DNA of 56,849 bases, from assembly GCA_964638865.1 (NCBI GenBank), contig CAZXBG010000003.1, positions 11,582 through 68,430 on the forward strand. The letters run 5' to 3'. Shown in pieces: positions 10,672 through 42,367 of this stretch. Every line of letters begins with the position of its first letter. Position 1 is the stretch's first letter. The notes beneath the pieces are model-generated. The model saw only the letters and a list, made by a program, of their open reading frames with translations. It made no database searches and was not told the origin of the DNA. The translations under genes were made by a program, and so were the position numbers. The DNA is from an uncultured Chitinophagales bacterium. GTDB taxonomy: Bacteria; Bacteroidota; Bacteroidia; Chitinophagales; BACL12.

Positions 10672-11556
10672 CTAAGTAAAATCCTCACCGAAACTAATCC
10701 CATATTTCAATTTTAACATTTTCAGATCCTCAGTAAAATATTGTTGCGCGAGTTGTTTTTCTTCTGCTGTAATCTGTTGCTGCGCTACTTCTGTTTTATT
10801 AATTGCATAAACCTTATCTATAATACCTGATTTTATGATCAATTTTCGGAATGGTTTTAAAAAAAATGATATTGTTTTTCGCAGATTGCTGTCCCTATTC
10901 AATAATAATTGTTGCAACCATTTACTTTTTACACCGGAGCCTGCATTAAATTTTATATTCTCCTGTTCAAACGGTATATAAGCGATATTTAAAGCAACAG
11001 TTAATTGTTTATAAAATGTTTCCGGGTCCTTTTTAAGATCCTCAAGTTTCAAAAGAATAAAATTTTCCAAAGGGAAAAATTGCAACCAATAATTTAGATG
11101 CTCATAATATAAACTGCCGTAAAAATGACAAGTATTATTTAATTCTGCGATGTCATTATTATTTAATCTGCTTTTTTCTAATTGTATCGTTTTAAGAAAA
11201 GAGGTATTGCTCTCTTCATGTCCATAGTTCACAGAATAATTAAAATTAGAAAATGCACGCTCCACGGGATCCCGCAACATTACGATCAATTTCATTTCGG
11301 GATTATAGGTTTTAATTCTTTCCGGCGCCTTTTTATCTATTAATAAATAAGTATCTGCAGTTGCCGTTATTTTTTTTTCTTGCGGTTCAAATAAAGAGTG
11401 AAAATATTTATCTCCGCGTTTAAACAGATCATCAATTGAAAAATAATGCACTTCTTTTGTGATAGAAAAATTTACTTCCTTGTGGTTGGAAAGATATTGA
11501 TACACGGAGGTTGTTCCGCTGCGCCCTGCACCTATTATAATGGCATTCACTTTCAT
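10672..11556 (-). CDS. PAPS-dependent sulfotransferase
   Basis: 5'-PSB loop IIGAGRSGTTS, KEVHYF, 3'-PB motif LRDPVERAFS. Confidence 0.9.
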   Translation of the reverse strand: MKVNAIIIGAGRSGTTSVYQYLSNHKEVNFSITKEVHYFSIDDLFKRGDKYFHSLFEPQEKKITATADTYLLIDKKAPERIKTYNPEMKLIVMLRDPVERAFSNFNYSVNYGHEESNTSFLKTIQLEKSRLNNNDIAELNNTCHFYGSLYYEHLNYWLQFFPLENFILLKLEDLKKDPETFYKQLTVALNIAYIPFEQENIKFNAGSGVKSKWLQQLLLNRDSNLRKTISFFLKPFRKLIIKSGIIDKVYAINKTEVAQQQITAEEKQLAQQYFTEDLKMLKLKYGISFGEDFT

Positions 11557-12551
11557 TTTTTTCCCAACAATCTTTTTAATAAAAACCAGGAATATTCATT
11601 CTTTATAATTTGTTCCGCACTAAATTTACCAACTTCCATAGGAATTCGTTCAATTATTTTCGAATCCAATGGATTTTTGAGTCCGGATGTACCTAAAAGC
11701 ATATCCATTTTTAATTTTGTTAAGATGTGCTCCACTGCTCCCTGATCTGCACCTTCTGCAGAAAAAGGGAATGCGAAATATTTCCTTTTAACCGAAAAAT
11801 TATCTTCAATAAAAATAAAACTTTTTTTAGTTTGTTCTATCTGACTTTCGGCAGAAATAGATTTATATAAGGGATGATCATAACTGTGACCTCCTATTTG
11901 AAATCCTTCGACTATCAATTGTTTTATTTCATCGGAGGTCATATAAGGCGACACCTTTTTTAAATATCTGACAAAACCTATTTGCGCTTCTCTTGAAATT
12001 TCATCAATTATATTTTGATCAGCATACGTAAGTGACAATAATTGTTTGGTCAAATTTTTAATGTCCGAATTGTCAATTTTCAAAACTTTACTTATTGCAA
12101 GTCGTTTATCAACATCACTTAAATAATTTATAATGATGGAGACTTTATATCTGTAAAACAGATCTTTATTATCAACAAATGCCGAATTTAAAAAAAATAT
12201 TGCCGGAATACCCTTTTGTTTTAAAATGGGCCGAACAACACTATACATTTCTCTCAAACCATCATCAAAACTTAATACAAAATAATTTTGTGCCGGATCA
12301 TAATTCTTTTCGTGAAAATCGTCAATGGATAAAGGTTTATAATATTTTAACAAAAAATCAAGATCTTGAATAAAGGAACTTTTGTTTTTGCAGGGATATA
12401 AATGTTTGATATGAATTACTTCTTCCTCGCAGATGTTATGATAAAAAGGGAAAATAATTTTAACACCTGATCTTTTTATCAGAGCAGGAATAGACCGCGA
12501 ACTATTTATGGAATTGAATAAATTAAAATATAGTTGTTTTGGTTTTTGCAT
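11553..12551 (-). CDS. Polysaccharide deacetylase (CE4/NodB-like)
   Basis: PFYH, LSFDDG, GGHSYDHP, FAFPF and RIP motifs; 4-nt overlap with the sulfotransferase. Confidence 0.88.
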   Translation of the reverse strand: MQKPKQLYFNLFNSINSSRSIPALIKRSGVKIIFPFYHNICEEEVIHIKHLYPCKNKSSFIQDLDFLLKYYKPLSIDDFHEKNYDPAQNYFVLSFDDGLREMYSVVRPILKQKGIPAIFFLNSAFVDNKDLFYRYKVSIIINYLSDVDKRLAISKVLKIDNSDIKNLTKQLLSLTYADQNIIDEISREAQIGFVRYLKKVSPYMTSDEIKQLIVEGFQIGGHSYDHPLYKSISAESQIEQTKKSFIFIEDNFSVKRKYFAFPFSAEGADQGAVEHILTKLKMDMLLGTSGLKNPLDSKIIERIPMEVGKFSAEQIIKNEYSWFLLKRLLGKK

Positions 12552-14562: not shown

Positions 14563-14773
14563 CTCTGCTCTGCCTTCTTACACTTTATGTGTTGGTTCTC
14601 AAGATTGGAAAAATATTTGGTTATATGTTTTCATCATGAACTGGAGAAGGCAGGGTTGGTTAAACCCTTTATATACATTTAAGACACTGAAAAATATTAA
14701 ACTATTTGGACAATGTCCTAATTTCATTTTTCATCTATAATTGCTTTAAGTAATCTTTTTGCAATTTTGCAGC

Positions 14774-15598
14774 ATGTTCAGCACCTTTTCATCACCAGTT
14801 CAAATCACATCTGCTATTACAGTTGGAGAAAAAAAACCCTTATTAATAGCAGGACCCTGTGTTATTGAAAATCTTGAATTGTGTCTGCTTGTTGCTGAAA
14901 AAATGAAAACGGTAGCCGAAAAACTGGGATATAATTACATCTTCAAAGCTTCTTTCGATAAAGCAAACCGAACAGCGGGCAACTCCTTTCGAGGAGATGG
15001 TTTAGAACACGGACTTAAGGTTCTGCAAACGGTAAAGGAAAAAATAGATGTTCCAATTTTAACGGATATTCATCTCCCCGAACAAGCGGCTTTAGCGGCA
15101 GAAGTGGCGGATGTGCTCCAGATTCCTGCTTTTTTATGTCGCCAAACCGACCTTTTAATAGCAGCGGGAAGAACTGGAAAGACGATAAATGTTAAAAAAG
15201 GGCAATTTATGGCTCCGGAGGATATGCAATATGCGGTTGAAAAAATTGCTTCAGTATTAAATAATAAAGTACTGCTGACAGAACGCGGTTCCAGTTTCGG
15301 ATATCACAATTTAGTGGTAGATATGCGGTCACTGCCTATCATGCGTCAATTTGCTCCTGTAATATTTGATGTTACCCACAGTGTTCAAATGCCCGGGGCT
15401 GAGGCCGGAAAAAGCGGAGGAAAACGAGAATTTGCTCCATATTTAGCCAAAGCGGCAGCTGCAGTAGGTGTTGATGGCTTTTTTATTGAAACGCATCCTG
15501 ATCCTGAAAAAGCATTGAGTGATGGACCGAATATGATTCCACTGCATGAGATGGAAAAACTGCTCAAAACGCTACTGGATATCAGAAATATCTCCTGA
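14774..15598 (+). CDS. kdsA: 3-deoxy-D-manno-octulosonate 8-phosphate synthase (metal-dependent type)
   Basis: [37 protein letters not shown]; likely ATG 14774. Confidence 0.95.
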
Positions 15599-15677: not shown

Positions 15678-16220
15678 GTGCTCGACTCACTAATCACATC
15701 CAAAACGCGTGTCAGGCTTTTGTTGCGGTTTTTTTCCAATACAAAATCCTCAGCCCATTTACGTGGATTGGCGAAGGAAATGAATGAATCCACCAATTCC
15801 ATCCGTATTGAACTCAACAAATTATCGAAGGCTGGATTTTTATTATCGCACGAGGAAGGAAAAACGATACAATATCAGGCGAATGAAAAACATCCGCTTT
15901 TTCCGGAAGTGAGCAGTTTGGTGCGCAAATATCTTGGTTTGGACAAGGTAGTAGAAAATATCGTAAATCAAATCGGAGAAATTAAATACGCATTTATTAT
16001 TGGCGATTATGCCGATGGAAAAGATACCGGAATTATTAATCTCGTGATCGCAGGAGAAGTGGATAACAATAAATTAATATATTGGGTGCAAAAAACAGAG
16101 GCGATCATTAACAGAAAAGTACAGACCGAAGTTTTAAGTCAGGAAGAATTTGCCGAATGGCAATTAAACGGCAATTTAACTAATGCAATTGTATTGTGGA
16201 CAGGCAATACAGTTGAATAA
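15678..16220 (+). CDS. ArsR-like winged-helix regulator fused to a degenerate minimal nucleotidyltransferase-fold domain
   Basis: LITSKTRVRLL...HLRGLAKEMNESTNSIRIELNKL wHTH; C-terminal FIIGDYADGKDTGIINL resembling the MNT motif. Confidence 0.8.
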   Translation: MLDSLITSKTRVRLLLRFFSNTKSSAHLRGLAKEMNESTNSIRIELNKLSKAGFLLSHEEGKTIQYQANEKHPLFPEVSSLVRKYLGLDKVVENIVNQIGEIKYAFIIGDYADGKDTGIINLVIAGEVDNNKLIYWVQKTEAIINRKVQTEVLSQEEFAEWQLNGNLTNAIVLWTGNTVE

Positions 16221-16289: not shown

Positions 16290-17168
16290 ATGTTCCAACA
16301 CAACTATAAAAATCCAATTATTGTTGCAGAGATCGGTTGCAATCACATGGGCAATTTTGAGATCGCAAAAGAATTAATTAAACTGGCAAAAGACAGCGGT
16401 GCGGATTTTGCAAAATTTCAAAAAAGAAATCCGAAGGAATTATTGGGAGAAGAACAATTTAATGCCCCTCATCCGGAACCCTGGCAGAGTTATGGAGAAA
16501 GTTATGGCAAACACAGAGAATTTCTTGAATTTACAATAGAACAACACGCCGAATTGAAAAGGTTTTCAGAAGAAATTGGAATTCAATATGCAGTTTCTGT
16601 TTGGGATGTAACCAGCGCGCAACAAGTGATCGGATTAAATCCCCAATTTATTAAAGTTCCTTCAGCATGCAATAATAATTATGCATTATTGCAATTAATT
16701 CGCGATAATTATAAGGGAGATGTTCATATATCTGTGGGAATGACAACTACCTCAGAAGTGGAAAAAATAATCCGTTTTTTTGAAGAAAAAGATCAGGCCA
16801 AAAACAGAATTGTATTATACAGTTGCACAAGCGGATATCCTATCGCATTTAAAGAAATTTGTTTATTGGAAATTAATAAGATCTACGAAAACTTTGGTTC
16901 TAAAATAAAAGAAGTGGGTTTTAGCGGTCATCACCTCGGTATAGCTGCAGACATAGCTGCATATACACTTGGAGCAAACTGGATTGAAAGACATTTTACA
17001 AAAGACAGAACATGGAAAGGAACAGATCATGCAGCAAGTCTGGAAGTTCCGGGATTACAAAAATTAGGGCGTGACCTGCATCATATTTATGAAGCACTTC
17101 AGTATAAAGAAAAGGAAATTTTATCGGTGGAAGAAGTACAGAGAAAAAAATTAAAAAATATTCTATAA
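16290..17168 (+). CDS. NeuB-family nonulosonate synthase, short form without SAF domain (probable KDN/Neu5Ac 9-phosphate synthase)
   Basis: AEIGCNHMG, KFQKR, GFSGHH, IERHFT, GTDH. Confidence 0.9.
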   Translation: MFQHNYKNPIIVAEIGCNHMGNFEIAKELIKLAKDSGADFAKFQKRNPKELLGEEQFNAPHPEPWQSYGESYGKHREFLEFTIEQHAELKRFSEEIGIQYAVSVWDVTSAQQVIGLNPQFIKVPSACNNNYALLQLIRDNYKGDVHISVGMTTTSEVEKIIRFFEEKDQAKNRIVLYSCTSGYPIAFKEICLLEINKIYENFGSKIKEVGFSGHHLGIAADIAAYTLGANWIERHFTKDRTWKGTDHAASLEVPGLQKLGRDLHHIYEALQYKEKEILSVEEVQRKKLKNIL

Positions 17169-17169
17169 C

Positions 17170-17898
17170 ATGAAAATCCTTGCAATTATCCCTGCTCGTG
17201 GAGGAAGTAAAGGACTTCCCGGAAAAAATATTAAACCGCTTTTGCAACATCCATTGCTTTCCTATAGTATTTTGGCTGCACAACAAAGTAAATTGATTAA
17301 CAGAATAATTGTGAATACTGATAGTGAGGATATATCAAACATTGCAAAACAATATGGCGCGGAAGTTCCTTTTTTACGTCCAGCCGCATTAGCGCAAGAT
17401 AATTCCACAGATCTTGATGTTTTTGTTCATCAATTACAATGGTTGAAAGAAAATGAAAATTATATTCCTGATCTTATCGTTCAGCTTCGTCCTACTTCAC
17501 CTGTGCGTTTTGAAAATTGGATAGATGATGCTATTGAAAAATTAATTGCAAGTGATGCCGATTCCATTCGCGTAGTAACAGAATCACCACTTACTCCCTT
17601 TAAAATGTGGTTGATTAATAACAATAATGATGGAGCGCTGGAACCATTGGTAACATTAAAAAATATACCTGAACCGTACAACCAGCCCCGTCAGAGTTTA
17701 CCAGTTGTTTACTGGCAAATAGGCACTTTAGATGTGATTAAAACAAATACTATTTCGGAAGGTGGATCAATGAGTGGAAATAAAATTCTTTCCTATCCGG
17801 TGGATAAAAAATATGCAATAGACATTGATGATGTTGCAAGTTTCTATAAAGCGGAGGAATTGATCCAATATAATGATTGTATTAAATTTGATGAATAA
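17170..17898 (+). CDS. neuA: CMP-nonulosonate synthetase (NeuA family)
   Basis: IIPARGGSKGLPGKN, LRPTSP, IDID. Confidence 0.92.
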   Translation: MKILAIIPARGGSKGLPGKNIKPLLQHPLLSYSILAAQQSKLINRIIVNTDSEDISNIAKQYGAEVPFLRPAALAQDNSTDLDVFVHQLQWLKENENYIPDLIVQLRPTSPVRFENWIDDAIEKLIASDADSIRVVTESPLTPFKMWLINNNNDGALEPLVTLKNIPEPYNQPRQSLPVVYWQIGTLDVIKTNTISEGGSMSGNKILSYPVDKKYAIDIDDVASFYKAEELIQYNDCIKFDE

Positions 17899-18871
17899 AA
17901 ATACTCCCATTTTAATTTTCGGAGCAGGATCGATAGGCGAACGGCATATCCGCAATTTATGGACATTGGGATATTGTAATTTATTATTGTATCGTCAACG
18001 CAATTTACCTTTCCGCGATATAGGCGAAGCTGAGGTGCAGGTTTTTTTAGATCTTAATGAAACAAAATCTCTAAACCCGGAAGTTGCATTTATTTGCACG
18101 CCAACTGCTCAACACCTGGAACAAACAATATATTGTGTAGAAAACAAAATGCACGTGTTTGTAGAAAAACCACTTTCGCATACCTTAGAAAATATGGACC
18201 ATCTAAAATCAATTGTAGCTAATTCCAATAAACTGTTACAGGTTGGATTTATGATGCGATTTCATCCCCATATACTTAAAGTTAAAAATTATATTCAGGA
18301 AAATATTTTTGGGGAATTAATATCGTCAACATCTCATTGGGGAAGTTATTTACCCGACTGGCATCCCTGGGAAAATTATAAGGAATCTTATGCGGCTAAA
18401 AAAAATCTGGGTGGTGGAGTTGCCTTGACGCTATGCCACGATATTGATTTGGCGATTTGGCTCGCAATGCGACCAATTAAAAACTATGAAACTAACTTTT
18501 CTTATTCCGGTGAACTGGATATCGAGACAGCATCAATTGCGGATATCGAAATTAATTTTGTGGATGGTGTAAACTCAAGAATACATTTAAATTATCTTGC
18601 CAATCCTCCAATAAGAAAATATCATTGGGAATTTGAGCATGTTTTCATTGATTTTAATTATTTTGATAATTTATTGATCATCAGCTCAAAGAACGACCCT
18701 TTTGAAAACCAGGAGTATAAAATAGAAGCCTTTGATAGAAACCAATTGTTTTTAGCTGAGGTAACCGATTTTTTTTATAAGATTGAAAATATTTCCAACC
18801 CAGTTCAACATTCCTTAAATTCAATACGCGAATCTGAATTATTAATATCTATTTGTAATGGCGACAATTAA
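17891..18871 (+). CDS. Gfo/Idh/MocA oxidoreductase
   Basis: GAGSIGERH, VEKP, YLPDWHPWE, GGGVALTLCHDID; likely ATG 17891 overlapping the neuA end. Confidence 0.88.
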   Translation: MNKNTPILIFGAGSIGERHIRNLWTLGYCNLLLYRQRNLPFRDIGEAEVQVFLDLNETKSLNPEVAFICTPTAQHLEQTIYCVENKMHVFVEKPLSHTLENMDHLKSIVANSNKLLQVGFMMRFHPHILKVKNYIQENIFGELISSTSHWGSYLPDWHPWENYKESYAAKKNLGGGVALTLCHDIDLAIWLAMRPIKNYETNFSYSGELDIETASIADIEINFVDGVNSRIHLNYLANPPIRKYHWEFEHVFIDFNYFDNLLIISSKNDPFENQEYKIEAFDRNQLFLAEVTDFFYKIENISNPVQHSLNSIRESELLISICNGDN

Positions 18872-19700
18872 TTTTACTTGTATAGTCTGCGGCAATGACA
18901 AATATAGTATTCCTTATTCTGAAAAATTTAATGTGCTAGAGTGCACTAAATGTAAATTCGGCATAATTGACCCAATTCCGGTAAATGATGTACTTGTAAA
19001 CTTATACAATACTGAATCGTATTTTAATACCCACATGCAACAGGAATATGAAGCTTTAAACGAACAGGAATTAACAGAATCCGTAAATAAACAGGGTACT
19101 TTTCACTTCCAATATTTAGATAAAATACTTAAACAAAATTCCTCCGTATTAGAAATTGGTCCGGGATATGGTTTGCAATTAAAATATTTATCTAATGCAG
19201 GTTATAAGGTTAAAGGAGTAGAGACATCTGAAAATGCTGTTTCGTTTATTAAAAATAAATTGGGTTTGAAGGTTGAGCGATCAAGTTTGGAAGATTACGA
19301 GGACAAAACCAAATACGATATTTTGATGCTGAACCATGTATTGGAACATTATAGAGATTTACATATTGCGATGCTCAAAATAACATCATTAATCAAAATC
19401 GGAGGACATATATATTTAAGAGTTCCAAACCATGATAGTTACGATAGGCGTAAAATGAAAAAGGAGTGGCCTGCATATCTTCCATTTCATATTTCCTACT
19501 TTTCAAAGAAAAGTCTTAAAATTCTTTTAACAAAATACAATTTTGAGCTCATATGTATGGAAGAATACGTTTCGGATACATTTTTACAAAAAATACCGAA
19601 ATATTTTAAAAAATTTATTAAATATTTTATGTTCATTTTTGGAATATCGCCATATATAAATGGCAGAACTATTACTATAATAGCAAAATACAATGCATAA
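18858..19700 (+). CDS. Class I SAM methyltransferase with N-terminal zinc ribbon
   Basis: CxxC...CxxC, LEIGPGYG, HVLEH, VPN. Confidence 0.85.
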   Translation: MATINFTCIVCGNDKYSIPYSEKFNVLECTKCKFGIIDPIPVNDVLVNLYNTESYFNTHMQQEYEALNEQELTESVNKQGTFHFQYLDKILKQNSSVLEIGPGYGLQLKYLSNAGYKVKGVETSENAVSFIKNKLGLKVERSSLEDYEDKTKYDILMLNHVLEHYRDLHIAMLKITSLIKIGGHIYLRVPNHDSYDRRKMKKEWPAYLPFHISYFSKKSLKILLTKYNFELICMEEYVSDTFLQKIPKYFKKFIKYFMFIFGISPYINGRTITIIAKYNA

Positions 19701-20508
19701 TATTACAATTGAAAATAAGGTAATCTTAGTCACAGGAGCCTTCGGGCTAATAGGCAAAACAATATCAATAAATTTTTTACATCAAGGTGCAAAGGTGATA
19801 TTGGCAGATAATAATTTTTCACAAACAGAGGCAATTTCTTCGGCTTTAAAAGAATTTGATCCGGAAAACTATTTAATAGTTGATTTGGACATTACAGAAG
19901 AAATAAGTTGTGAAAAGGTTATTGAAAAGTCAATTGCAAAATTTGGAAAGATTGATGTACTGATAAACAATGCAGCAATTGATGCCAAATTTGACAAAAG
20001 TAATATTTCGGAGGTCAATCATTCCCGATTTGAAAATTACCCACTTGAACTTTTTAAAAAATCAGTTGATGTTAATATTACAGGCACTGTATTAATGACG
20101 CAAGTAATATGCAGACAAATGCTCAAACAAGGATTTGGGAATATTATTAATGTTGCATCAACTTATTCACTAGTGGCGCCGAATCAGAAATTATATGATT
20201 TCGGTGATGGAACAATTCAATATAAACCTGTTGATTATATTGTAACAAAATCATTTATACCAAATTTTACAAAATACCTTGCAACATTTTATGCACAGAA
20301 TAATATTCGCTGCAATGCAATAGTTCCTCACGGCATATTTAATGATCACGACGAAAAATTTTTGACAAATTTTTCCTCATTGTCGCCAATGGGCCGAATG
20401 GCTGATAAAAATGAAATGTCGGGACCTTTTACATTTCTCGCTTCCGATGCATCCAGTTACATGACAGGGTCTACGCTTGTGGTGGATGGGGGATGGACTG
20501 CCTGGTAA
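19693..20508 (+). CDS. SDR oxidoreductase (PtmA/ElaC-like)
   Basis: TGAFGLIG, INNA, ASTY, YxxxK (YIVTK), VDGGWTAW. Confidence 0.88.
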   Translation: MHNITIENKVILVTGAFGLIGKTISINFLHQGAKVILADNNFSQTEAISSALKEFDPENYLIVDLDITEEISCEKVIEKSIAKFGKIDVLINNAAIDAKFDKSNISEVNHSRFENYPLELFKKSVDVNITGTVLMTQVICRQMLKQGFGNIINVASTYSLVAPNQKLYDFGDGTIQYKPVDYIVTKSFIPNFTKYLATFYAQNNIRCNAIVPHGIFNDHDEKFLTNFSSLSPMGRMADKNEMSGPFTFLASDASSYMTGSTLVVDGGWTAW

Positions 20509-20535
20509 AACAAACGTTCAATTAAAAATCTATTT

Positions 20536-21036
20536 ATGCAAAAAAAGATTAAACTTTTTTTATCGGATGTTGACGGAGTTTTGACCGACTCCGGGATGTA
20601 TTACACAGAAAGTGGTGATGAATTTAAAAAATTTAATACACATGATGGAATGGGTTTTAATCTTTTAAAAGCAGCCGGAATTAAAACAGGAATAATTACT
20701 ACTGAAAAAACAAATATTGTTAATAATCGCGCAACAAAGTTGAAAATTGACTATGTGTATCAGGGTGTCGGCTTCGGAGGGAAACTGGAATCTGCGCGAG
20801 AAATTTGCAAACTCGAAAATATAACAATGGAGGAAGTTGCCTATATTGGTGATGATATTAATTGTTTTGACTTGTTAAGTGAGGTTGGCTTAGCAGCTTG
20901 TCCTGCAAACGCTAACAAAAAAATAAAAGCCATCCCGGGCATAATTCACTTAAATAAATCCGGGGGAGATGGTGCAGTTCGGGAATTTATCGACGAATAT
21001 ATTTTAACCGGAGAACAGCATGAAGAAGGTCAATAG
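20536..21036 (+). CDS. KdsC-family HAD phosphatase (KDO8P/KDN9P phosphatase)
   Basis: DVDGVLTD, DGMG, YIGDDIND, GGDGAVRE. Confidence 0.92.
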   Translation: MQKKIKLFLSDVDGVLTDSGMYYTESGDEFKKFNTHDGMGFNLLKAAGIKTGIITTEKTNIVNNRATKLKIDYVYQGVGFGGKLESAREICKLENITMEEVAYIGDDINCFDLLSEVGLAACPANANKKIKAIPGIIHLNKSGGDGAVREFIDEYILTGEQHEEGQ

Positions 21037-21823
21037 TATTTTCTACCGATTAATTCAATTTGTTACAAAAAATTATTCTGTAACACAAAAGGAAAAATTT
21101 ATTGCGGGAATGCTTTTTTTTATCTCGAAGAAGGACAATGCCGAAACAAAAAATAAACTCCGGTTATTACTTTACGATGAGAGGCTTAAACCTTATCCTG
21201 TAGTTGGGTACCAAGAGCGTTTGAGATATTATGGCTGGTTTGAAATGTTGTCCAATCTGCAAAAGGTGGAAGGAGATATTGTGGAAGCAGGAACTGGTTA
21301 TGGCAATACATTGATCACTTTTTTGAGTGCAAATAACTATTTTAATTCTTCCAAAAAAATATATGCCTTTGATTCCTTTGAAGGATTTCCTATTCCACAT
21401 TCAAATGATATTGGCAGCAAGGTGCAACCTAACGAAAAAATATTGGGATGGGATGATGCCTCTCCAGCATTGATAGAAGACAGTATTGTATTTCACACAG
21501 CTAAAAATGATCTCAAATTAAATGCTGCATCCATCATTTTCAGAAAAGGTTTTTTTAAAGATACCATGCCGCAGGGCTTACCGGAAAAGATTAGTCTGTT
21601 GCATGTAGATAACGATTTATATGAGGGAGTATTGCAGGTGTTACATTCCAGTTTTAAAAGACTTCAACCTAATGCAGTTGTAATATTTGATGAGTATCAC
21701 GATGAAAAATGGCCGGGAGTTAAAAAGGCAGTAGATGAATTTGCCGAAATATTTACACTTAAAATTCAATATTTTCCATCTTTGCTCCGCTTTGGGTTTA
21801 TAAAAAGCGCAGAGACAACTTAA
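21020..21823 (+). CDS. TylF/MycF/NovP-family O-methyltransferase
   Basis: GDIVEAG, FDSFEGFP, KGFFKDT, LHVDNDLY, FDEY. Confidence 0.88.
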   Translation: MKKVNSIFYRLIQFVTKNYSVTQKEKFIAGMLFFISKKDNAETKNKLRLLLYDERLKPYPVVGYQERLRYYGWFEMLSNLQKVEGDIVEAGTGYGNTLITFLSANNYFNSSKKIYAFDSFEGFPIPHSNDIGSKVQPNEKILGWDDASPALIEDSIVFHTAKNDLKLNAASIIFRKGFFKDTMPQGLPEKISLLHVDNDLYEGVLQVLHSSFKRLQPNAVVIFDEYHDEKWPGVKKAVDEFAEIFTLKIQYFPSLLRFGFIKSAETT

Positions 21824-21825
21824 AT

Positions 21826-23346
21826 ATGTCGATAACCAAAAACTTTATCAAAAATTTGGCGAGTAACTACTTTATTCTCTTTTTAAAGATCATTTATTCA
21901 ATCTTATTCGTTCCCATAATTTTAAATGTTTATGGCGAAGCACAATTTGGAATGTATATGCTGATATTCGGGCTAACATACACGATAGGTTTTTTTGATT
22001 TTGGCGCAGGCAAATCAGTTTTGAAATATGCAGCGGAATATAAAGCCGACAATGACCGAAATAAATTTCAGGAAGCGTTTTCCGTTAATATTTCACTTAT
22101 ACTCATTTCGTCGGTAGTTATTTTTTTACTTATTATGCTTTTAAGTTTATGGGCAGGGCCCTTATTTAATATAGAAGCCGATCAACTTCAATTGGCGCGC
22201 ACTGTTTTTATTGTTTCCGCATTGAACGGAGTGGTTTTGTTTCTCGATTATATTCCTTCCAATATTTTAACCGGTTTTAGTTATTTTCATAAACGCAATA
22301 AACTACAGTTGCTTCCTCTTGCCTTAAACATGGGTTTACTTTATATCGTAGCTGTTTTGTCAAAAATTACTTTGATCCAGTATTGTTTGCTAACAACGGG
22401 CATTAATCTGATATTTTTAATAGGTGACATTATATTACTCAGATCAATCCCTGAAATGAGAGAGGTGAAATTTGCTTTACATTTTAAAAAAGATCTTTTA
22501 TCCAATAAGTATACGAAGTTCTCCATAGTATTATTTGCTATTTCCGCAGTTGGCTTTTTAGGGATTCAATCAGACAGGATTATTCTCGCTTCCATCATAA
22601 ACATTTCGGCAGTTACCATTTACACCATTGTAACACGACCCTATTTTTTACTGAAAACGATCATGGGTAGCAGTTACAGTGTTATCCAACCTATACTGAT
22701 CAAAACACAGCTTTTAGATGAGGAACGTTTTTTTGGAATACTGGAAAGATTTACAAGAATTTCATTTATCATGATCTTCAGTGTTGTATTGATTTTCAGT
22801 ATCTTTTTTGAAACAATTATGCGTTTATGGTTGTCTACTGCTAATTACGATGAGTATACAATATGGGGTATTTTTGCATTGATCAATATTTGCATCCCGA
22901 CGTTATATGGTGCCATATCACGAACCTTACTATTAACCACAGGTTCAGGTAATTTATTAAAGTATAATTCTATTGCCATAACAATAAATTTTATCAGCAG
23001 CATCTTCCTTGTTTATTATATTGGATTTCAAGGCGTTATAATTGGTACTACAATACAGTTCATTTTTGAATTTTATGTGATCAATCTAATTTCTATTAAA
23101 CATTTAAAATTTCCATTGAGAAGGATATTTTCCAAAGACTTTGTATTATATTCCCTATTACTGTTAGCCACTGCAGTAATATTTCGTTTGATTTTTGAAG
23201 GAATGGCTCCGTTAGTGACAGGGCAGTTCATGTTACTGTTGAGCATGACTATTGTTGTTTTTGGAATACTCAACTACCTGTTTATTTCAAATACAGGATA
23301 CGGCTTTCTGTTCAGGAGATCATACTGGCAAAATATAAATTCGTGA
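21826..23346 (+). CDS. wzx: Wzx oligosaccharide flippase
   Basis: 506 aa, many TM segments, FGMY...DFG pattern, SDRIIL; locus context. Confidence 0.85.
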   Translation: MSITKNFIKNLASNYFILFLKIIYSILFVPIILNVYGEAQFGMYMLIFGLTYTIGFFDFGAGKSVLKYAAEYKADNDRNKFQEAFSVNISLILISSVVIFLLIMLLSLWAGPLFNIEADQLQLARTVFIVSALNGVVLFLDYIPSNILTGFSYFHKRNKLQLLPLALNMGLLYIVAVLSKITLIQYCLLTTGINLIFLIGDIILLRSIPEMREVKFALHFKKDLLSNKYTKFSIVLFAISAVGFLGIQSDRIILASIINISAVTIYTIVTRPYFLLKTIMGSSYSVIQPILIKTQLLDEERFFGILERFTRISFIMIFSVVLIFSIFFETIMRLWLSTANYDEYTIWGIFALINICIPTLYGAISRTLLLTTGSGNLLKYNSIAITINFISSIFLVYYIGFQGVIIGTTIQFIFEFYVINLISIKHLKFPLRRIFSKDFVLYSLLLLATAVIFRLIFEGMAPLVTGQFMLLLSMTIVVFGILNYLFISNTGYGFLFRRSYWQNINS

Positions 23347-24677
23347 TGGAACCTCAAACTATCAAAATTGGAATACTGGCACAATATCTCGGAACCCGAA
23401 ATGATGTTCGATTACTTATTAATGGTATAGCTCAGAAATCAGATGTCACCCTATACCTTAAAGAGGCAGATAAGATTTCAGAACAAAATCTCAATTCCAA
23501 TATAAGATTTCAATATTTCAGCAACAAGTCAAATAAACTAAAACACTATTTTGTTTATGCCATCTATAAATTATTTGGCAAGATACCACGCAGCAGGAAT
23601 AATTACTTTGTAACCGAAAATTTTAAGATCGCGAATTCTGATTTTAAAGGTATTCACCGTTTTATTGAACGTTTTATTTTAAATTCTTCGAAATTTACTC
23701 CTAAGTTTATTAGTTACGACAGCTTTTTAACAATGTTGGCTCCTCCAAAAGAGAATTCAATGAGTGAACAGCATGTTTTTCTTTGTATTACCCAGATCTA
23801 TGATGATGCTCTTTTCCGGGTAATGATAGAAACCGGAAAAAAAGTATTTGTATATGTTTATAGCTGGGATCATGCCTGCAAAATGAAATGTTTTTCAAAA
23901 AATAAAAATGTTTTTTATTTAGTTTGGAGTAAAGAAATTCACGGTGATCTGGAACAACTACATGGCATAGCCTCCGAAAATATTATGGTTACAGGTGCAA
24001 CACAATTTGTCTATTTACATCAATATCTCAACGAAAATAAAATATCATCCCGCTCGGCTGCCAACAAAAAATATATTTATATACCAATGGCAACGGGCAC
24101 AAAGAACCTTACTCCAGAGGAAGTGCAATTATATGGAGCAATTATTCAAAAAATTCGATCTCAAGGGATTGATGTAAAGATCATTATAAGGCCATACCCA
24201 TTTCTTAAAAACTGGGATCTTTATGCTTCATTACTTAAATTACCTAACGTGGAAATTGAGAAGGATTACCGTGAAAATGCAAATACACAAAATGTATCTG
24301 AAGAAAATCTGCTGAAAAAATATTCCATGCTTCAAAATGCGAGTTTAGTTATACATTGCGGTACAACACTTGGACTGGAAGGCTCTTATCTGGATGTTCC
24401 TGTGCTATTTGCAGATCTCAGCAAAACCATGCGCCTATCGCAACTCGATAAATTCGTGCATCAATTTCAGAATGATAAATATTTAAATCTAACTGCTTTT
24501 CCAAATGTTTTAAAATCAATAGAAGATCTGGCAGTATTAGTATCAAAAGCATTAAAGGCTCCGGCTTCCTATTTACCATATAATATTCAGTGTAAAAAAG
24601 TTGCCGAAGTAAAGAGTTCAGGAGAAATAATCAAACGGTTTCTGGAAATAATGACTTCTGAAAATATTCATGTTTAA
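23343..24677 (+). CDS. Putative GT-B transferase, candidate nonulosonate transferase
   Basis: SWDH, LVWS, VTGATQF, IIRPYP and TTLGLE motifs; directly after the CMP-nonulosonate module and wzx. Confidence 0.5.
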   Translation: MMEPQTIKIGILAQYLGTRNDVRLLINGIAQKSDVTLYLKEADKISEQNLNSNIRFQYFSNKSNKLKHYFVYAIYKLFGKIPRSRNNYFVTENFKIANSDFKGIHRFIERFILNSSKFTPKFISYDSFLTMLAPPKENSMSEQHVFLCITQIYDDALFRVMIETGKKVFVYVYSWDHACKMKCFSKNKNVFYLVWSKEIHGDLEQLHGIASENIMVTGATQFVYLHQYLNENKISSRSAANKKYIYIPMATGTKNLTPEEVQLYGAIIQKIRSQGIDVKIIIRPYPFLKNWDLYASLLKLPNVEIEKDYRENANTQNVSEENLLKKYSMLQNASLVIHCGTTLGLEGSYLDVPVLFADLSKTMRLSQLDKFVHQFQNDKYLNLTAFPNVLKSIEDLAVLVSKALKAPASYLPYNIQCKKVAEVKSSGEIIKRFLEIMTSENIHV

Positions 24678-24687
24678 CTAATTAAGG

Positions 24688-25635
24688 ATGCCATCCGTTT
24701 TAACGCCATTAGAGAACGAAAAAAATCTGATTAAAAGAATCAGAAATAAATTCCACCGTGAATTTATTCAAATTCCACAAAGAAGCAGATTGAGAAAACG
24801 ATTCATCAATACATTACCTTTATATTCCACTTATCCTTCAAATAAATATTCTATCCATAGTTTATTATGCCACCGAGATGTAGAAATGGGTATTTGCTGT
24901 TTTAAGGCATTCAACTATTTTGCAGGAGGCAATTTTGAATTCATAGTACACGACGATGGATCATTAACGGATAGCGATATCCAATATATAAGAAACCAGG
25001 TGGTAGCGAAAATTCACACCAAATCAGAATCCGACGAGATCGCATTTCAGACACTTCAACTATTTCCAAACATTTTAAAATACAGGAACAGTCATTTTCT
25101 TGCTTTAAAATTAATTGATGTAATACTATTGGGATCCGGAACACGAATGGCCTACCTTGATTCGGATATATTGTTTTTCCAAAAACCTGAATTTTATTTG
25201 GAGACATTTATGACTCAGGAAAAAAGTAAAAATTATTTTAATAAAGATTTTTTTGATGCATATATCGATTCACCGGAGAACATTCAAAAAAATCTCGGTG
25301 TTTTTCCATTTCCCTTTATCAATGCAGGACTATGGGTTTGCAATAAAGAAGATCTTGATCTGCACAAAATTGAAGAATGGTTAGCTACAGAATATTTGAA
25401 ACCCTTTATAAATTTCTATCGACTGGAGCAAACCCTTTTAAGTTTATTGGCGAGAGAAAGCGCTCATGGTGCAGATTATCTTCCGGAAGGTTATAATGTT
25501 GACCTGTTAAAACTTCCGCAGAATTGTATAGGAAAACATTACGTCGGAAAAATCCGTCATGGGTTTGAATTAGAGGGAATAAGATATCTTTTGCAAGCTG
25601 GTCATATAGTCCCTGATATAGGAAAACACATATAA
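24688..25635 (+). CDS. Putative GT-A glycosyltransferase
   Basis: HDDGSL, YLDSDILF DxD, INAGL, EQT. Confidence 0.65.
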   Translation: MPSVLTPLENEKNLIKRIRNKFHREFIQIPQRSRLRKRFINTLPLYSTYPSNKYSIHSLLCHRDVEMGICCFKAFNYFAGGNFEFIVHDDGSLTDSDIQYIRNQVVAKIHTKSESDEIAFQTLQLFPNILKYRNSHFLALKLIDVILLGSGTRMAYLDSDILFFQKPEFYLETFMTQEKSKNYFNKDFFDAYIDSPENIQKNLGVFPFPFINAGLWVCNKEDLDLHKIEEWLATEYLKPFINFYRLEQTLLSLLARESAHGADYLPEGYNVDLLKLPQNCIGKHYVGKIRHGFELEGIRYLLQAGHIVPDIGKHI

Positions 25636-26824: not shown

Positions 26825-28072
26825 TTGAATTTTAGGTCCCGATTTATTTTAATAACGATTTTCACGTTGACGATATCTTTTGTTTTGCACAAACTTTTTT
26901 ATGATTCGCGGGAAAATAAAAATTGGATAGGGCCTTATTTATCTTCAGCGGCCAATTTACAAATGTTTGGAAGTTTTCAAATTGATGAGGCAAAAGTAAT
27001 TGATTTTAAAGAATTAAATCCACGAGAGCAATATCACTATCAGTTTAAAAAATCTGATAATTTAAGTTCATACACACACAATCCTATAGGATATTCGTAT
27101 ATTATAAGAATTGCCGCAACTATGTTCCCATTTTTAGGGAATTCGGAAAGTCTTATCCTGTTCCAGGTACTGATGCATTTATTTATAAGCCTTTTAATTC
27201 TTTATCAATTCAGAACAACTAATCGTTTCATACTAATCTTTTCTATATTTTATGTTTGCAATCCTTTCATACTGTACTTCGTGGTACTAAACTATTATTA
27301 CTTCTGGCAATGTATTCCGGGATTTATGATGATCTATATTATCCTCTCCCAGCCAAAACGACAATGGATAGTTATCATGTGCACTATAATTTTATTGTTC
27401 GCCACGCTAGCAAGACCGACTATATTATTTCTGTCTCTTTTCACACTAATACTTCTATACCGCAAATATTCTGTAACTTTCGCAACGCTTACCATAGCAA
27501 TTTCAACATTGTTTTTTATCCTGATAAACAAACCCACAGAAAAAATTATCTGGCATACTGTTTATGTAGGCATAGGAGCTTACCCAAATTCAAATGTGTC
27601 TTATTTATCTGACAATTTTGGATACCAATTATATCGCGACAGTACGGGAACAGAACTAAATGCCAGTTTGGGTGGAAATTATTATGACGACAGTGTAATA
27701 AAAAGATATTCTGAGATCACCAAGAACACTGCAATCGGGATCTTAAAAAAAGACCCTGCTCTGTTTATCAGAAATGCCCTCAGTAATACTTTTCAGTGTT
27801 TTTCCATTGGATATGTAAAAACCAATTCACCTATACTAAACATTATCTCAGCAATACTCGGATTACTTTATTGTATTTTACTTTGGAAAAGTAAACAAAA
27901 TTTTATAATTGTATCCATTTTGTTGTATGCATTTATGTTTTTCGTGTATTACCCTCCAATTCCGGCATATTTATTTGGGGCATATATTTTGCTTGTATTT
28001 TCTTTTTACAATGTTTTATCTTATTATAAACCGCAATTCGCACCTCCTATTACATTTAAGTATCCGTTTTAA
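26825..28072 (+). CDS. Multi-pass membrane protein, possible GT-C-like modifier
   Basis: Hydrophobic TM runs, PIGY and LARP motifs, large loop; start uncertain (TTG). Confidence 0.55.
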   Translation: MNFRSRFILITIFTLTISFVLHKLFYDSRENKNWIGPYLSSAANLQMFGSFQIDEAKVIDFKELNPREQYHYQFKKSDNLSSYTHNPIGYSYIIRIAATMFPFLGNSESLILFQVLMHLFISLLILYQFRTTNRFILIFSIFYVCNPFILYFVVLNYYYFWQCIPGFMMIYIILSQPKRQWIVIMCTIILLFATLARPTILFLSLFTLILLYRKYSVTFATLTIAISTLFFILINKPTEKIIWHTVYVGIGAYPNSNVSYLSDNFGYQLYRDSTGTELNASLGGNYYDDSVIKRYSEITKNTAIGILKKDPALFIRNALSNTFQCFSIGYVKTNSPILNIISAILGLLYCILLWKSKQNFIIVSILLYAFMFFVYYPPIPAYLFGAYILLVFSFYNVLSYYKPQFAPPITFKYPF

Positions 28073-28081
28073 CTATTTTGA

Positions 28082-29128
28082 ATGTATCCTAAAAAAAAGA
28101 TATTATTTATAAGTTCCAATGATGGGTCTGATATGCGTATAAACAAAGAACTGCACACGCTTTCCCAAATATTTGAAATTACCTATCTCGGAGTAGGCAC
28201 CACAAATGTTGATTCCTATGCTCGTGAATATTGCAAATACTTTTATCTCGTAGTCGGTAAAAGAAATCATCCCGCAACAATTCTGAAACAATTTTTACTC
28301 GTCGCAAAACTATTGCGTAAAAATTATAGCTCTATTCATATCATTAACGAACAATTAATGATATTTTTCTATCCATTTTTGTTCAGAAAACATCTGGTGC
28401 TGGATATATTTGATTCTATTTTTCTCACTTTGAATAAAAGTAAAAATAAATGGAGATTGCTGAAAAAAATAATATACGCTCCTGTTAATATTATTCTGGT
28501 GACCGACAGCAACAGGAAAACATTTATGCCTGATTTTGTGCAACACAAGGTTCAGTTATTGGAAAACTATCCCATTAAATTTACGAATTCAATAATTAAG
28601 AATTCCGAAAAAAATAAAGTAACCATTTTGTATAATGGCTGGCTTGGAAATTCAAGAGGAACTGAATTGGTTCAAAAAATACTTTCGGCAAACAGAAATG
28701 TAAAAATAATTATGGTTGGTTGGTTTGCCGATGAGGAAAGCAGGGAATTGATATCCAATCCCTCGGTGGAGTATCGGGGAATTATGTCGCAAGCGAATGC
28801 ATTAAATATTGCTGCCGAAGAATCGGATTATATTTTATGTGTTTACGCACCAAAGAATGATAATAATATTAACGCAAGTCCTAATAAGATTTACGATGGG
28901 CTGCAAACGAGAACTCCCGTGATTATAAATGCAGAAATTGCTATCTCCAATTTTGTGAAGGAGAATGGATTGGGAATTGTAATAGAGAAATATGAAGTGG
29001 AGGATATCAATAATTTGATCGACGAACTTTTTGCGAGAAAAAACACATTTGAATTTAATCCCGAAATGGCGGATGAATTTACTTGGGAGAAAATTGAAGG
29101 CGTTTTAATTAAGGCTCATCAAATATGA
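28082..29128 (+). CDS. GT4-like glycosyltransferase
   Basis: DMRINKE, LENYP, ASPNKIYD. Confidence 0.75.
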   Translation: MYPKKKILFISSNDGSDMRINKELHTLSQIFEITYLGVGTTNVDSYAREYCKYFYLVVGKRNHPATILKQFLLVAKLLRKNYSSIHIINEQLMIFFYPFLFRKHLVLDIFDSIFLTLNKSKNKWRLLKKIIYAPVNIILVTDSNRKTFMPDFVQHKVQLLENYPIKFTNSIIKNSEKNKVTILYNGWLGNSRGTELVQKILSANRNVKIIMVGWFADEESRELISNPSVEYRGIMSQANALNIAAEESDYILCVYAPKNDNNINASPNKIYDGLQTRTPVIINAEIAISNFVKENGLGIVIEKYEVEDINNLIDELFARKNTFEFNPEMADEFTWEKIEGVLIKAHQI

Positions 29129-31498: not shown

Positions 31499-32647
31499 AT
31501 GTTAAAAACGATCATTATTATTGGGACGCGACCGGAAGCTATTAAAATGGCCTTATTGGCTAAAGAGCTCAATAAGAGAAAAGGAATAAAAAATTATTTA
31601 TGTGTTTCCGGACAACACCGTTCAATGTTGGATCAGGTTTTAGATTTTTTTGCGATTAAGCCCGACTTTGATCTAAATATCATGCAGGAAAATCAGCAGC
31701 TAAATGATATTACCGGTAAAATCATTATTGAAGTATCGAAAATTTATGACCAGATAAACCCAGACCTCATATTGGTGCATGGCGATACCAATACTTGCTT
31801 TGCGGCGGCATTAGCAGCTTACTATAAAAAAATTCCTGTGGCGCACGTAGAAGCCGGAATGAGAACAGGAAATATTAATGTTCCTTTTCCTGAAGAAGCA
31901 AATCGGGTGCTTACAGGAAGAATATCCAATTTCCATTTTGCTCCCACTTCGCTCAATGTAAAGAATTTAATAGCAGAAGGTGTAAAAAGAGATTGCATTA
32001 TTAAAACAGGAAATACAGTTATAGACAGTTTGATCTACACCTCAAAAAAAATAAAAATATTTTCTGACCAGGTTACAGATCAAAAACTAATTAAGGCTGT
32101 TTCAGATATCAAAAAAATTATTTTAGTCACCGGTCACCGTCGAGAAAATTTTGGTGGAGGTTTTAAAAACATCTGCCTTGCATTAAAAAATATTGCAATT
32201 CAAAACCCCGATTGTTATATTATATATCCAGTACATCTCAATCCAAATGTTCAACAACCGGTTTTAAAAGCATTAACAGGAATTAATAATATCATCTTAA
32301 CATCACCACTATCTTACCCTGACTTTGTATTTTTATTGAACCGAGCTTATTTAATCTTAACCGATTCAGGTGGAATTCAGGAAGAAGGACCTTCACTTGG
32401 AAAACCGGTACTTGTGATGCGAGATATAACGGAAAGACCTGAAGCAATTCAGGCAGGAACCGTAAAATTAGTTGGCACCGACAGAAAAAAGATCGAAAAG
32501 GAAGTTAACCATTTACTAAACGATAAAAAACAGTATCATAAAATGTCGAAAATGGTAAATCCATACGGTGATGGAAAAGCTACGGAAAAGATCGCGGATT
32601 GGATTATTAATAATCAATCACGCATTAAAAAAGCAAAACCAGAATGA
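31499..32647 (+). CDS. wecB: UDP-GlcNAc 2-epimerase (non-hydrolysing)
   Basis: GTRPEAIK, HGDT, HVEAG, HRREN, DSGGIQEE, NPYGDG. Confidence 0.95.
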   Translation: MLKTIIIIGTRPEAIKMALLAKELNKRKGIKNYLCVSGQHRSMLDQVLDFFAIKPDFDLNIMQENQQLNDITGKIIIEVSKIYDQINPDLILVHGDTNTCFAAALAAYYKKIPVAHVEAGMRTGNINVPFPEEANRVLTGRISNFHFAPTSLNVKNLIAEGVKRDCIIKTGNTVIDSLIYTSKKIKIFSDQVTDQKLIKAVSDIKKIILVTGHRRENFGGGFKNICLALKNIAIQNPDCYIIYPVHLNPNVQQPVLKALTGINNIILTSPLSYPDFVFLLNRAYLILTDSGGIQEEGPSLGKPVLVMRDITERPEAIQAGTVKLVGTDRKKIEKEVNHLLNDKKQYHKMSKMVNPYGDGKATEKIADWIINNQSRIKKAKPE

Positions 32648-34752: not shown

Positions 34753-34755
34753 TGT

Positions 34756-36672: not shown

Positions 36673-36674
36673 AA

Positions 36675-39856: not shown

Positions 39857-40484
39857 ATTATATTTCAAACGCTTTTTCGATTTCTTTTATTCCTTGATAC
39901 TATTAATTATTTTATCTCCTCTATTTATATTTATCGCCTTTCTTTGTATAATTTTTTTTAAAGGCAAAATATTTTTTACTCAGAAACGAGTCGGGAAAAA
40001 CGAAAAAATATTTACCATAGTGAAATTCATCTCCATGAGACCCCTAACCGAAAAAAACATTACCGATGCAAGCAGAACTTCCCGGTTTGGGAGTATACTC
40101 CGCAAAAGTTCCATGGATGAAATTCCTCAGCTTTTAAATGTGTTGATCGGTGACATGAGCTTGATAGGACCCCGCCCGCTTCTGATAAAATACTTACCTT
40201 ATTACAGTGTGGCTGAAAAAACAAGACATCAAGTTAGACCCGGAATTACCGGTTTAGCACAAATTAACGGCCGCAATAACTTATCCTGGGATCACCGCCT
40301 GCAATTTGATATTCAATATGTTAAGAATTTATCTTTAGATTTAGATCTCAAAATTTTTATTAAAACGATAGTAGTTACCTTTTCCGCAAAAAATATTCAG
40401 GCAGATGTGGAATTAAATTTACAGGATCTTGATGTGGAAAGAATCAATTTAACTGCATCTGAAAATAATAATTCAACACAATAA
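39849..40484 (+). CDS. Initiating phosphoglycosyl transferase (PglC-like)
   Basis: KRFFD, KFISM, DEIPQLLNV, GDMSLIGPRP, PGITGLAQ. Confidence 0.93.
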   Translation: MYRLYFKRFFDFFYSLILLIILSPLFIFIAFLCIIFFKGKIFFTQKRVGKNEKIFTIVKFISMRPLTEKNITDASRTSRFGSILRKSSMDEIPQLLNVLIGDMSLIGPRPLLIKYLPYYSVAEKTRHQVRPGITGLAQINGRNNLSWDHRLQFDIQYVKNLSLDLDLKIFIKTIVVTFSAKNIQADVELNLQDLDVERINLTASENNNSTQ

Positions 40485-40498
40485 ACAACATTTTATTC

Positions 40499-41140: not shown

Positions 41141-41196
41141 CAATTTTTTAGAATATTAGTAATTCTGAAATTTTTATAATACATTTAGTAAAACAA

Positions 41197-42324: not shown

Positions 42325-42367
42325 GTCCACTCTCCTTACATTTTCTTCAATTTTCGTCATATTTACG

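Follow-up and report, generated by a model that had tools for sequence, protein, structure and literature searches.

The nonulosonate block and its setting

The window analysed in this study is a stretch of 56,849 nucleotides of an uncultured Chitinophagales bacterium (contig C3 of a 4.1 Mb genome assembled in 286 contigs and 98.8 % complete). Its subject is a block of nine genes with a predicted role in the synthesis of a nonulosonic (sialic-acid-like) sugar: neuB, neuA, a Gfo/Idh/MocA oxidoreductase gene (gfo), a methyltransferase gene, a short-chain dehydrogenase/reductase (SDR) gene (sdr), a HAD phosphatase gene (had), a second methyltransferase gene of the TylF type, a wzx flippase gene and a gene for a protein of GT-B fold. 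The block lies at the front of a Wzx/Wzy-type polysaccharide locus that spans kdsA (14759) to wza/wzc (47738). The nine ORFs are translationally coupled, with spacings of −26 to +27 bp (overlaps, or gaps of 1–27 bp), and are confirmed as genuine genes (Table 1). The closest named relatives are Chitinophagales metagenome-assembled genomes, in which NeuB is 72–80 % identical and the upstream synteny matches.

The gene family calls of a first-pass annotation, made from the sequence without database searches, agreed for all nine ORFs with the evidence of Pfam and NCBIfam profiles, the Atlas and fold comparisons. Its statement that the window encodes no hydrolysing NeuC or Pse enzyme was upheld, and no NeuC was found above cut-off in the whole genome.

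Table 1. Genes of the nonulosonate block and of its 5′ flank, with positions in the window
Product	Position	Strand	Evidence
KdsA, 3-deoxy-D-manno-octulosonic acid (Kdo) 8-phosphate synthase; upstream context	14759..15598	+	NF003543 and TIGR01362 above cut-off
Winged helix-turn-helix protein; upstream context	15678..16220	+	Weak ArsR-type match; kept 5′ of neuB across the genus (synteny)
NeuB, short, SAF-less; likely Kdn-9-phosphate synthase (predicted)	16290..17168	+	PF03102, 215 bits; sole genomic NeuB
NeuA, CMP-ulosonate synthetase, distinct type R107/D188/M201	17170..17898	+	PF02348; PDB alignment; pocket survey; tree
Gfo/Idh/MocA oxidoreductase, ElaA/PtmF-like*	17873..18871	+	PF01408 and PF22725; ElaA residue match
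Class I S-adenosylmethionine (SAM) methyltransferase, N-terminal CxxC-CxxC; optional gfo/sdr insert	18858..19700	+	PF13489; orthologues confined to slot
SDR, ElaC/PtmA-like, extended substrate loop, NAD-type Asp39	19693..20508	+	NF006619, 178 bits vs cut-off 255; loop alignment, tree
KdsC-type HAD phosphatase, Glu57/Arg65/Lys68	20536..21036	+	Best PDB match 3E81; sole such gene in genome
TylF/MycF-type sugar O-methyltransferase; nonulosonate link uncertain	21020..21823	+	PF05711; CalS11, MycF and NovP matches
Wzx flippase, 506 aa	21826..23346	+	13 hydrophobic segments; Atlas features and structure
GT-B fold protein, 444 aa, TagF-like; likely CMP-ulosonate transferase (predicted)	23343..24677	+	AlphaFold model, fold searches, Atlas
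*The start may be 17888 or 17891 rather than 17873; residue numbering follows 17873.

NeuB and the backbone sugar

The only NeuB of the genome, of 292 aa, matched PF03102 alone, with the motif FQKR at residues 43–46 and no SAF domain match in a profile search. Its catalytic and metal residues could be aligned to those of Neisseria meningitidis NeuB. It fell far under the equivalog cut-offs (TIGR03569, 189.9 versus 399.65 bits; TIGR03586, 128.6 versus 340.25 bits), and the remaining canonical marks of pathways to N-acetylneuraminic acid (Neu5Ac), legionaminic acid (Leg) or pseudaminic acid (Pse), namely NeuC/LegG or PseG and a hydrophobic C5 pocket, were also lacking. No NeuC, NanE or AGE epimerase was found above cut-off in the genome. 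A phosphoglucose/phosphomannose isomerase for mannose 6-phosphate (Man-6-P) was found; a type I phosphomannose isomerase was not.

Quick maximum-likelihood trees with SH-aLRT (approximate likelihood ratio test) support placed the window NeuB in a SAF-less clade (support 100), which joins another short type and BT1714-type proxies (96) and falls apart from seven Leg, Neu and Pse rows. The proxies, L147–L149, were picked by their BT1713-like neighbouring gene and stand in for BT1714, whose own sequence was not in the comparison. The first-pass annotation had named NeuB phylogeny as a check on its proposal of a route to ketodeoxynononic acid (Kdn). In these trees the protein did not group with LegI or PseI, and neither neuC nor legG was found above cut-off elsewhere in the genome. 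Among the 82 loci that carry this NeuB clade (duplicates are included in all counts over these loci), NeuC was seen in none. Homologues of 55 % identity lie in Sinorhizobium capsule loci, adjoining sialyltransferase-like genes.

The layout of the Kdn-9-phosphate (Kdn-9-P) route, a synthase with a HAD phosphatase and a CMP (cytidine monophosphate) synthetase and no hydrolysing UDP-GlcNAc 2-epimerase, is present in the window. In Bacteroides thetaiotaomicron, the CMP-Kdn route comprises the synthase BT1714, the phosphatase BT1713 and a CMP-Kdn synthetase (PMC6200933, in excerpt). The first-pass likening of the block to the Bacteroides route stands for this layout. The window NeuB lacks the SAF domain, forms a clade of its own within the 96-supported group and is only 29–31 % identical to the proxies, and is therefore, as judged from these alignments, not a BT1714 orthologue. 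The residue-level and comparative evidence from NeuB, HAD, NeuA and the absence of NeuC nevertheless supports the Kdn route as such, and Kdn is considered with good confidence to be the backbone sugar of the block.

Beside the BT1714-type synthases of L147 (6307–7983) and L149 (1841–3514) lie fusions of approximately 559 aa, which join a degenerate NeuB-like domain to an SpsF-like cytidylyltransferase. A search of Escherichia coli DNA for neuB or Leg loci found none.

The HAD phosphatase

The Glu56/Lys67 pair is presumed here to mark the Kdn-9-P phosphatase lineage. The window enzyme, with E57/R65/K68 (E/R/K), retains the two residues, Glu and Lys, altered in the mutant structures 4HGQ and 4HGR of the PDB. 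Its best NCBIfam match was NF058599, Kdn-9-P phosphatase, at 175.7 bits, just under the cut-off of 180, and its closest solved relative was BT1713 (3E81), at 144.7 bits versus 99 for the best KdsC-type PDB entry. All full-length HADs in the survey that are linked to NeuB have E/R/K, and L008, which has a separate HAD linked to kdsA, shows R/R/E in that enzyme.

Exactly one KdsC-type HAD occurs in 25 of the 28 family genomes, and two occur in none. Within the genus of the window organism, the cassette HAD is of the E/R/K type and is 65–71 % identical to cassette HADs of distant taxa. From these distributions, it is likely that the cassette enzyme replaced an ancestral kdsC and serves both sugars; as the only KdsC-type enzyme of the genome, it probably also acts in the kdsA pathway. 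The first-pass suggestion that the phosphatase could serve kdsA instead is thus probably right as to kdsA and probably wrong as to "instead". A phosphatase for kdsA alone was rejected: the gene travels with NeuB, in many cases as a fusion with NeuA, and in L008 a second KdsC lies next to kdsA.

A distinct CMP-synthetase

In a PDB-based alignment, R107, D188 and M201 of the window NeuA (R-D-M) replace Q104, Y179 and F192 of the N. meningitidis enzyme, and the hydrophobic N-acetyl pocket has been lost. Where this NeuB clade occurs without the redox pair (gfo and sdr), NeuA has Q-Y-R at the positions corresponding to N. meningitidis Q104/Y179/F192 in 17 of 18 intact loci, four further loci cut by contig ends being set aside. 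The Sinorhizobium capsule loci with sialyltransferase-like neighbours are among them. The Arg of Q-Y-R corresponds to Arg196 of PpNeuA, an experimentally tested gate-keeper that decides between Kdn and Neu5Ac (PMC12934254, in excerpt). The Q-Y-R pattern is the strongest independent clue to Kdn.

Of 55 intact loci with a synthetase of the R-D/E type, 54 also have Gfo; of 17 with the Q-Y-R type, none does. With sequences merged at 90 % identity, these figures become 43 of 44 and 0 of 14. The R-D/E synthetases form a clade of their own (100) inside an 87-supported group with the synthetases of Ela-type modules, which likewise lack the Gln that contacts O8. The split between Q-Y-R and R-D-M synthetases is usable as a sequence marker.

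The ela genes replace lgaG by a synthetase of their own, and the phage protein EpaA carries its own cytidylyltransferase domain. Because own synthetases would be unnecessary if the CMP-sugar alone were edited, epimerisation of the free acid appears as likely as a step at the CMP level, and the order of epimerisation and activation is judged to be about even. The redox step "applied to CMP-KDN" of the first-pass annotation is therefore one option of two, and a dedicated synthetase fits free Kdn at least as well.

The Gfo/SDR redox pair

The roles of ElaA and ElaC are themselves based on genetics, crystals and docking, and functional residues have been named for both (PMC13656337, in excerpt). 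The window proteins were matched to these published residue numbers and to proxies from Leg loci, rather than to the ElaA and ElaC sequences; ElaABC did not turn up in PDB sequence searches. Gfo residues K99, W163, L179, L187 and H189 lie at a constant offset of +8 from ElaA K91, W155, L171, L179 and H181, and SDR residues S156, Y158, V161, Y168, P179, Y182 and K186 correspond to ElaC S145, Y147, V150, Y157, P165, Y168 and K172. The SDR loop is three residues longer than the V150–P165 loop of ElaC and has Lys178 for Met164; this extended loop is absent from three generic SDRs of the same genome. The best NCBIfam matches of the SDR were PRK09186/PtmA, below cut-off. The clustering of Gfo, cytidylyltransferase and SDR with a nonulosonate synthase is that of Ela-type modules, and these data together support the Ela-type nature that the first-pass annotation had ascribed to the pair. 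A Leg pathway (LegB/C/G/I) as substrate source is missing, with no NeuC/LegG in the genome and NeuB outside the LegI rows.

The position of ElaA I148, in the pocket for the 5-N-acetyl group, is Trp in 96 of 97 Gfo homologues without NeuC and Val or Ile in all six from a Leg/NeuC context (one of the six assigned by a legX neighbour), and the ElaC M164 position is Lys throughout the SDR clade. In terms of modelled pockets, these changes would fit a substrate without N-acetyl groups.

As to the direction of the reaction, Asp39 of the SDR is of the NAD type, and the sister clade of the SDR is found with an aminotransferase in the absence of Gfo, a setting that needs an oxidase. In Gfo, basic residues follow the second strand, and ElaA was crystallised solely with NADP+ (PMC13656337, in excerpt). 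For these reasons there is a weakly held preference for oxidation by the SDR and NADPH-dependent reduction by Gfo, the reverse of the published ElaA/ElaC proposal.

Conservation of the cassette

The genes neuB-neuA-gfo-sdr-had form a conserved cassette across Bacteroidota. NeuB was found in 13 of 16 other genomes of the genus, and in two of the three without a match the other cassette genes are present at the end of a contig. The best 80 of 330 metagenome loci with Gfo divide into 40 with this NeuB, 14 with a different NeuB and 26, mostly short contigs, with none. Among the 40 with this NeuB, the SDR was seen in 36, the HAD in 25 and NeuC in none. Several of the other NeuB types near Gfo are of approximately 750 aa with an added TIM-barrel domain. 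A Serratia NeuB needed for a Kdn/Neu5Ac capsule has a like description in the excerpted source, the likeness being one of description only. All five plasmid matches of Gfo lie in nonulosonate loci. Since a close SDR orthologue was present in only 2 of 400 phylum-wide genomes, the cassette appears to be widespread but sparse.

A genome of the same genus (G004, 98 % complete) keeps neuB-neuA-had and the glycosyltransferase, with no orthologue of either oxidoreductase genome-wide. The redox pair is therefore best described, from comparative data, as an optional add-on that is gained or lost together, and not as precursor supply.

Related gene clusters were also observed. A recurrent Bacteroidota cassette (L044, L050–L056, L058, L059, L062 and L066, and also on a Methylomagnum plasmid) comprises an SpsF-like cytidylyltransferase, a split transketolase (missing in two), a class III aminotransferase, an SDR of the sister clade, a short NeuB from a different clade and, in most cases, an E/R/K HAD. 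The aminotransferase and the SDR of L055 appear to be fused. The cassette is a candidate pathway to an aminated ulosonic acid. At L060 (5031–10020) and L061 (4461–9346), and in the similar viral locus L193, gfo-neuA-sdr adjoins genes for a long NeuB and for a NeuC of the hydrolysing type, and no LegB/LegC pair is visible; these are candidate loci for an epimerised Neu5Ac. A viral scan of 20 loci found no close member of the window SDR clade, the best being 43 % identical.

The methyltransferases and the tailoring slot

Of 27 other family genomes, five carry an orthologue of the first methyltransferase (45–68 % identity), always within the cassette next to gfo or sdr, and two metagenome loci have one in the same slot. 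Among 400 other genomes of the class (a tally that includes one unpublished genome, G737, to which no conclusion is tied), no match exceeded 36 % identity, and nine distant matches whose surroundings were inspected had no cassette gene within 1.5 kb. Because its position is fixed inside the cassette, the distribution suggests that this enzyme acts on the nonulosonate.

The TylF protein scored 76 bits with PF05711, and the SAM-binding and acidic metal motifs are present in an alignment to CalS11. Orthologues of more than 50 % identity occurred in 3 of 250 order genomes: one, in G003, occupies the same slot in a genome without the first methyltransferase, and the other two are broken copies outside the locus, adjoining a histidine kinase gene. 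Both methyltransferases together were seen in this window alone. In relatives, the gap between sdr and had (L016, 13373–14332; L029, 13847–14815; L007, 14204–14848) holds a sulfotransferase or O-acetyltransferase gene. These comparisons point to a slot for interchangeable tailoring, in which double methylation would be a minority case. The up to two methylations envisaged in the first-pass annotation are weakly supported: the first enzyme is tied to the cassette by its slot, and TylF is not.

A methylated Kdn is already known, in that 5-O-methyl-Kdn occurs in the polysaccharide of Sinorhizobium fredii SVQ293 (PMC7845648, in excerpt). On an S. fredii plasmid, L037 (8977–13004) holds this NeuB clade, a Q-Y-R NeuA-HAD, a DUF6716 transferase and a small methyltransferase, and is a candidate source of 5-O-methyl-Kdn.

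The flippase and the GT-B fold protein

The 506-aa protein had no Pfam match; it resembles Wzx flippases by its Atlas features and structure. The 444-aa protein had no Pfam or NCBIfam match, and fold searches with its AlphaFold model (mean per-residue confidence, pLDDT, of 86) returned generic GT-B proteins; in the Atlas it resembles TagF-like PF04464 clusters. Its gene is present in only 16 of the 82 loci. Whether this protein might be a hidden hydrolysing epimerase was considered, as NeuC took second place among the fold matches with a Z of 19.3, a score shared by other GT-B proteins, and rejected: profile comparison gave NeuC a probability of 0.2 %, with no N-terminal alignment, and the gene is rare among the loci.

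Proposed pathway and alternatives

At a little better than even confidence, the block is read as making Kdn and inverting one of its side-chain hydroxyls, most likely that at C8, by means of the ElaA/ElaC-like pair, the product then being activated and transferred into a Wzx/Wzy-type polysaccharide. In this scheme, NeuB would condense Man-6-P with phosphoenolpyruvate to Kdn-9-P, a step held to be quite probable, and the HAD would remove the phosphate, probably doubling as the Kdo-8-phosphate phosphatase of the cell. The SDR and Gfo would oxidise and then re-reduce a hydroxyl; formation of some epimer is reasonably likely, and that of 8-epi-Kdn (L-glycero-D-galacto) in particular is evenly balanced. 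The R-D-M NeuA would attach CMP, before or after this step. O-Methylation of the nonulosonate by the inserted class I enzyme falls slightly short of an even chance, and by TylF it is doubtful. The 444-aa protein would transfer the sugar.

Several observations weigh against this scheme. For the backbone, NeuB is distant from the BT1714-type proxies, and the window NeuA does not have the Kdn gate-keeper Arg at the position of PpNeuA R196, which is Met201 (Arg107 and Asp188 being present). The E/R/K triad is not exclusive, as it occurs in six HADs with no NeuB in view, and two sister genera without the cassette carry a 56–64 % identical E/R/R HAD directly after kdsA (a third has the triad G or L/R/M). 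For the redox step, the match to ElaA and ElaC is one to residue numbers and proxies; identities to the proxies are low (Gfo 25–30 %, SDR 27–34 %), both proteins form clades of their own beside them, and the sister clade of the SDR accompanies aminotransferases. The association of NeuA type with Gfo reflects two clades and few independent events, most Gfo loci came from the Gfo query, and G004 has an R-D type NeuA without the pair, so that this type is not necessarily specific for an epimer. Kdn offers free hydroxyls at C4, C5, C7, C8 and C9, which do not fix the position of inversion. A published assignment of PtmA/PtmF homologues is to GDP-GlcNAc supply, and Leg is reported from a Plesiomonas strain that has both (PMC4481668, in excerpt). 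The two methyltransferases were found in only 6 and 3 of the 82 loci.

A fuller version of the scheme is unlikely to hold in all its parts. It would have a widespread Bacteroidota cassette make 8-epi-Kdn on the free sugar, with R-D-M activation, one or two O-methylations here and sulfo- or acetyltransferases swapped in among relatives, giving a family of undescribed sialic-acid-like surface sugars.

In a rather unlikely alternative, the backbone is Kdn-like and the pair has a task other than C8 inversion: inversion at C4, C5 or C7, formation of a keto group that is retained, or epimerisation of the hexose 6-phosphate before the synthase acts. The clade-marking changes cluster at the C5 pocket (NeuA D188, Gfo W156), the SDR departs from ElaC in loop length and in Lys178, and related Acinetobacter modules also invert C7 (PMC5595891). 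However, the characterised modules with two oxidoreductases (Ela, Epa) yield C8 epimers, C7 inversion takes a four-gene module, and the C5-pocket changes are simply explained by a hydroxyl in place of the N-acetyl group.

Plain Kdn is a less probable product, with Gfo, SDR and both methyltransferases acting on another sugar of the repeat unit or in precursor supply, as proposed for PtmA/PtmF (PMC4481668, in excerpt). That G004 retains the same NeuA type and glycosyltransferase family without the pair would agree with this, as would the TylF orthologues outside the locus. On the other hand, the pair is wedged between neuA and had, it stays with several NeuB types even though the polysaccharide genes around it are replaced completely, a special synthetase accompanies it, and Man-6-P requires no GlcN-type supply.

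A product other than Kdn (Neu5Ac via N-acetylmannosamine 6-phosphate, Leg via the N,N′-diacetylbacillosamine (diNAcBac) genes at 39849–44396, or a Kdo-like eight-carbon acid tied to kdsA) is very improbable, for although the diNAcBac genes, a non-hydrolysing WecB and kdsA share the locus and a gene could be missing from an assembly of 286 contigs, the genome has no hydrolysing epimerase, NanE or AGE, NeuA has lost its hydrophobic N-acetyl pocket, the 444-aa protein is no NeuC, a separate kdsB exists and the cassette adjoins kdsA in only 21 of the 82 loci.

If inversion of Kdn by the pair is correct, a common environmental sugar would have been overlooked, its mass being equal to that of Kdn. 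As Kdn and CMP-Kdn are easy substrates, the cassette would in addition be a simple system in which to settle how Ela enzymes work, namely which of the two is the oxidase and whether the reaction precedes CMP activation or follows it.

Other genes of the locus

The window also contains a PglF/LegC-like/NeuD-like trio (39849–44396) that the first-pass annotation had overlooked and that makes a diNAcBac precursor; it is unaccompanied by the hydrolysing epimerase which legionaminic acid requires, and Leg from these genes was rejected, there being no LegG/NeuC in the genome. This segment comprises PglC-, NeuD/PglD- and PglF-like genes and a LegC-like gene (TIGR04181, 388.7 versus a cut-off of 420); most simply, these genes and the PglC-like transferase make the initiating sugar of the repeat unit, of the diNAcBac type. 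Positions 31499–38561 hold genes for a non-hydrolysing WecB, a 702-aa zinc-alcohol dehydrogenase/Gfo fusion, an asparagine-synthase-like amidotransferase and a heparinase II/III-like protein, probably a module for an amidated hexosaminuronic acid. Three orphan ORFs, all with homologues in relatives, are a weak GT8 match (24688–25635, E 0.007), a membrane protein (26825–28072) and a weak GT4 match (28082–29128). Just 5′ of the locus, on the − strand (10672–12551), lie a sulfotransferase and a polysaccharide deacetylase gene, and relatives show ORFs of the same size there.

Comparison with known systems

The block resembles the CMP-Kdn pathways of B. thetaiotaomicron and Prymnesium parvum in having a synthase, a HAD and a CMP-synthetase without NeuC, and its HAD is closest to BT1713. 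It differs in that its NeuB is SAF-less, its NeuA lacks the equivalent of PpNeuA Arg196, and two oxidoreductases and two methyltransferases have been added. A methylated Kdn in a bacterial surface polysaccharide has its counterpart in the 5-O-methyl-Kdn of S. fredii SVQ293 (PMC7845648, in excerpt). The locus with this NeuB clade, NeuA-HAD and a nearby methyltransferase (L037) is from another S. fredii strain, linked to SVQ293 by species only, and loci of that type, unlike the window, have a classic Q-Y-R synthetase and no Gfo or SDR.

With ElaABC of Acinetobacter baumannii KL49 (8-epilegionaminic acid) and modules of the PtmF-LegF-PtmA type, the window shares a block of Gfo, cytidylyltransferase and extended-loop SDR, and its catalytic and pocket residues align with those named for ElaABC (PMC13656337, in excerpt). 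In contrast to ElaABC, it has no Leg pathway upstream, its gene order is neuA-gfo-sdr rather than gfo-neuA-sdr, all three proteins fall in separate clades, and the N-acetyl pocket is altered (I148 to W, M164 to K). EpaAB (8-epipseudaminic acid) and AciA–E (acinetaminic acids) are likewise add-on oxidoreductase modules that alter the side-chain stereochemistry of nonulosonates, but EpaA uses an aldo-keto reductase instead of Gfo, and the substrates of both systems are 5,7-diamino-9-deoxy sugars. C7 and C8 epimers have been described for 5,7-diamino nonulosonates; no report of a natural Kdn epimer or of a Kdn-linked epimerase was found in the literature searched, in which subscription carbohydrate journals were largely uncovered. 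Every part of the block has a known counterpart, and its novelty would lie in the joining of a Kdn route to an Ela-type module.

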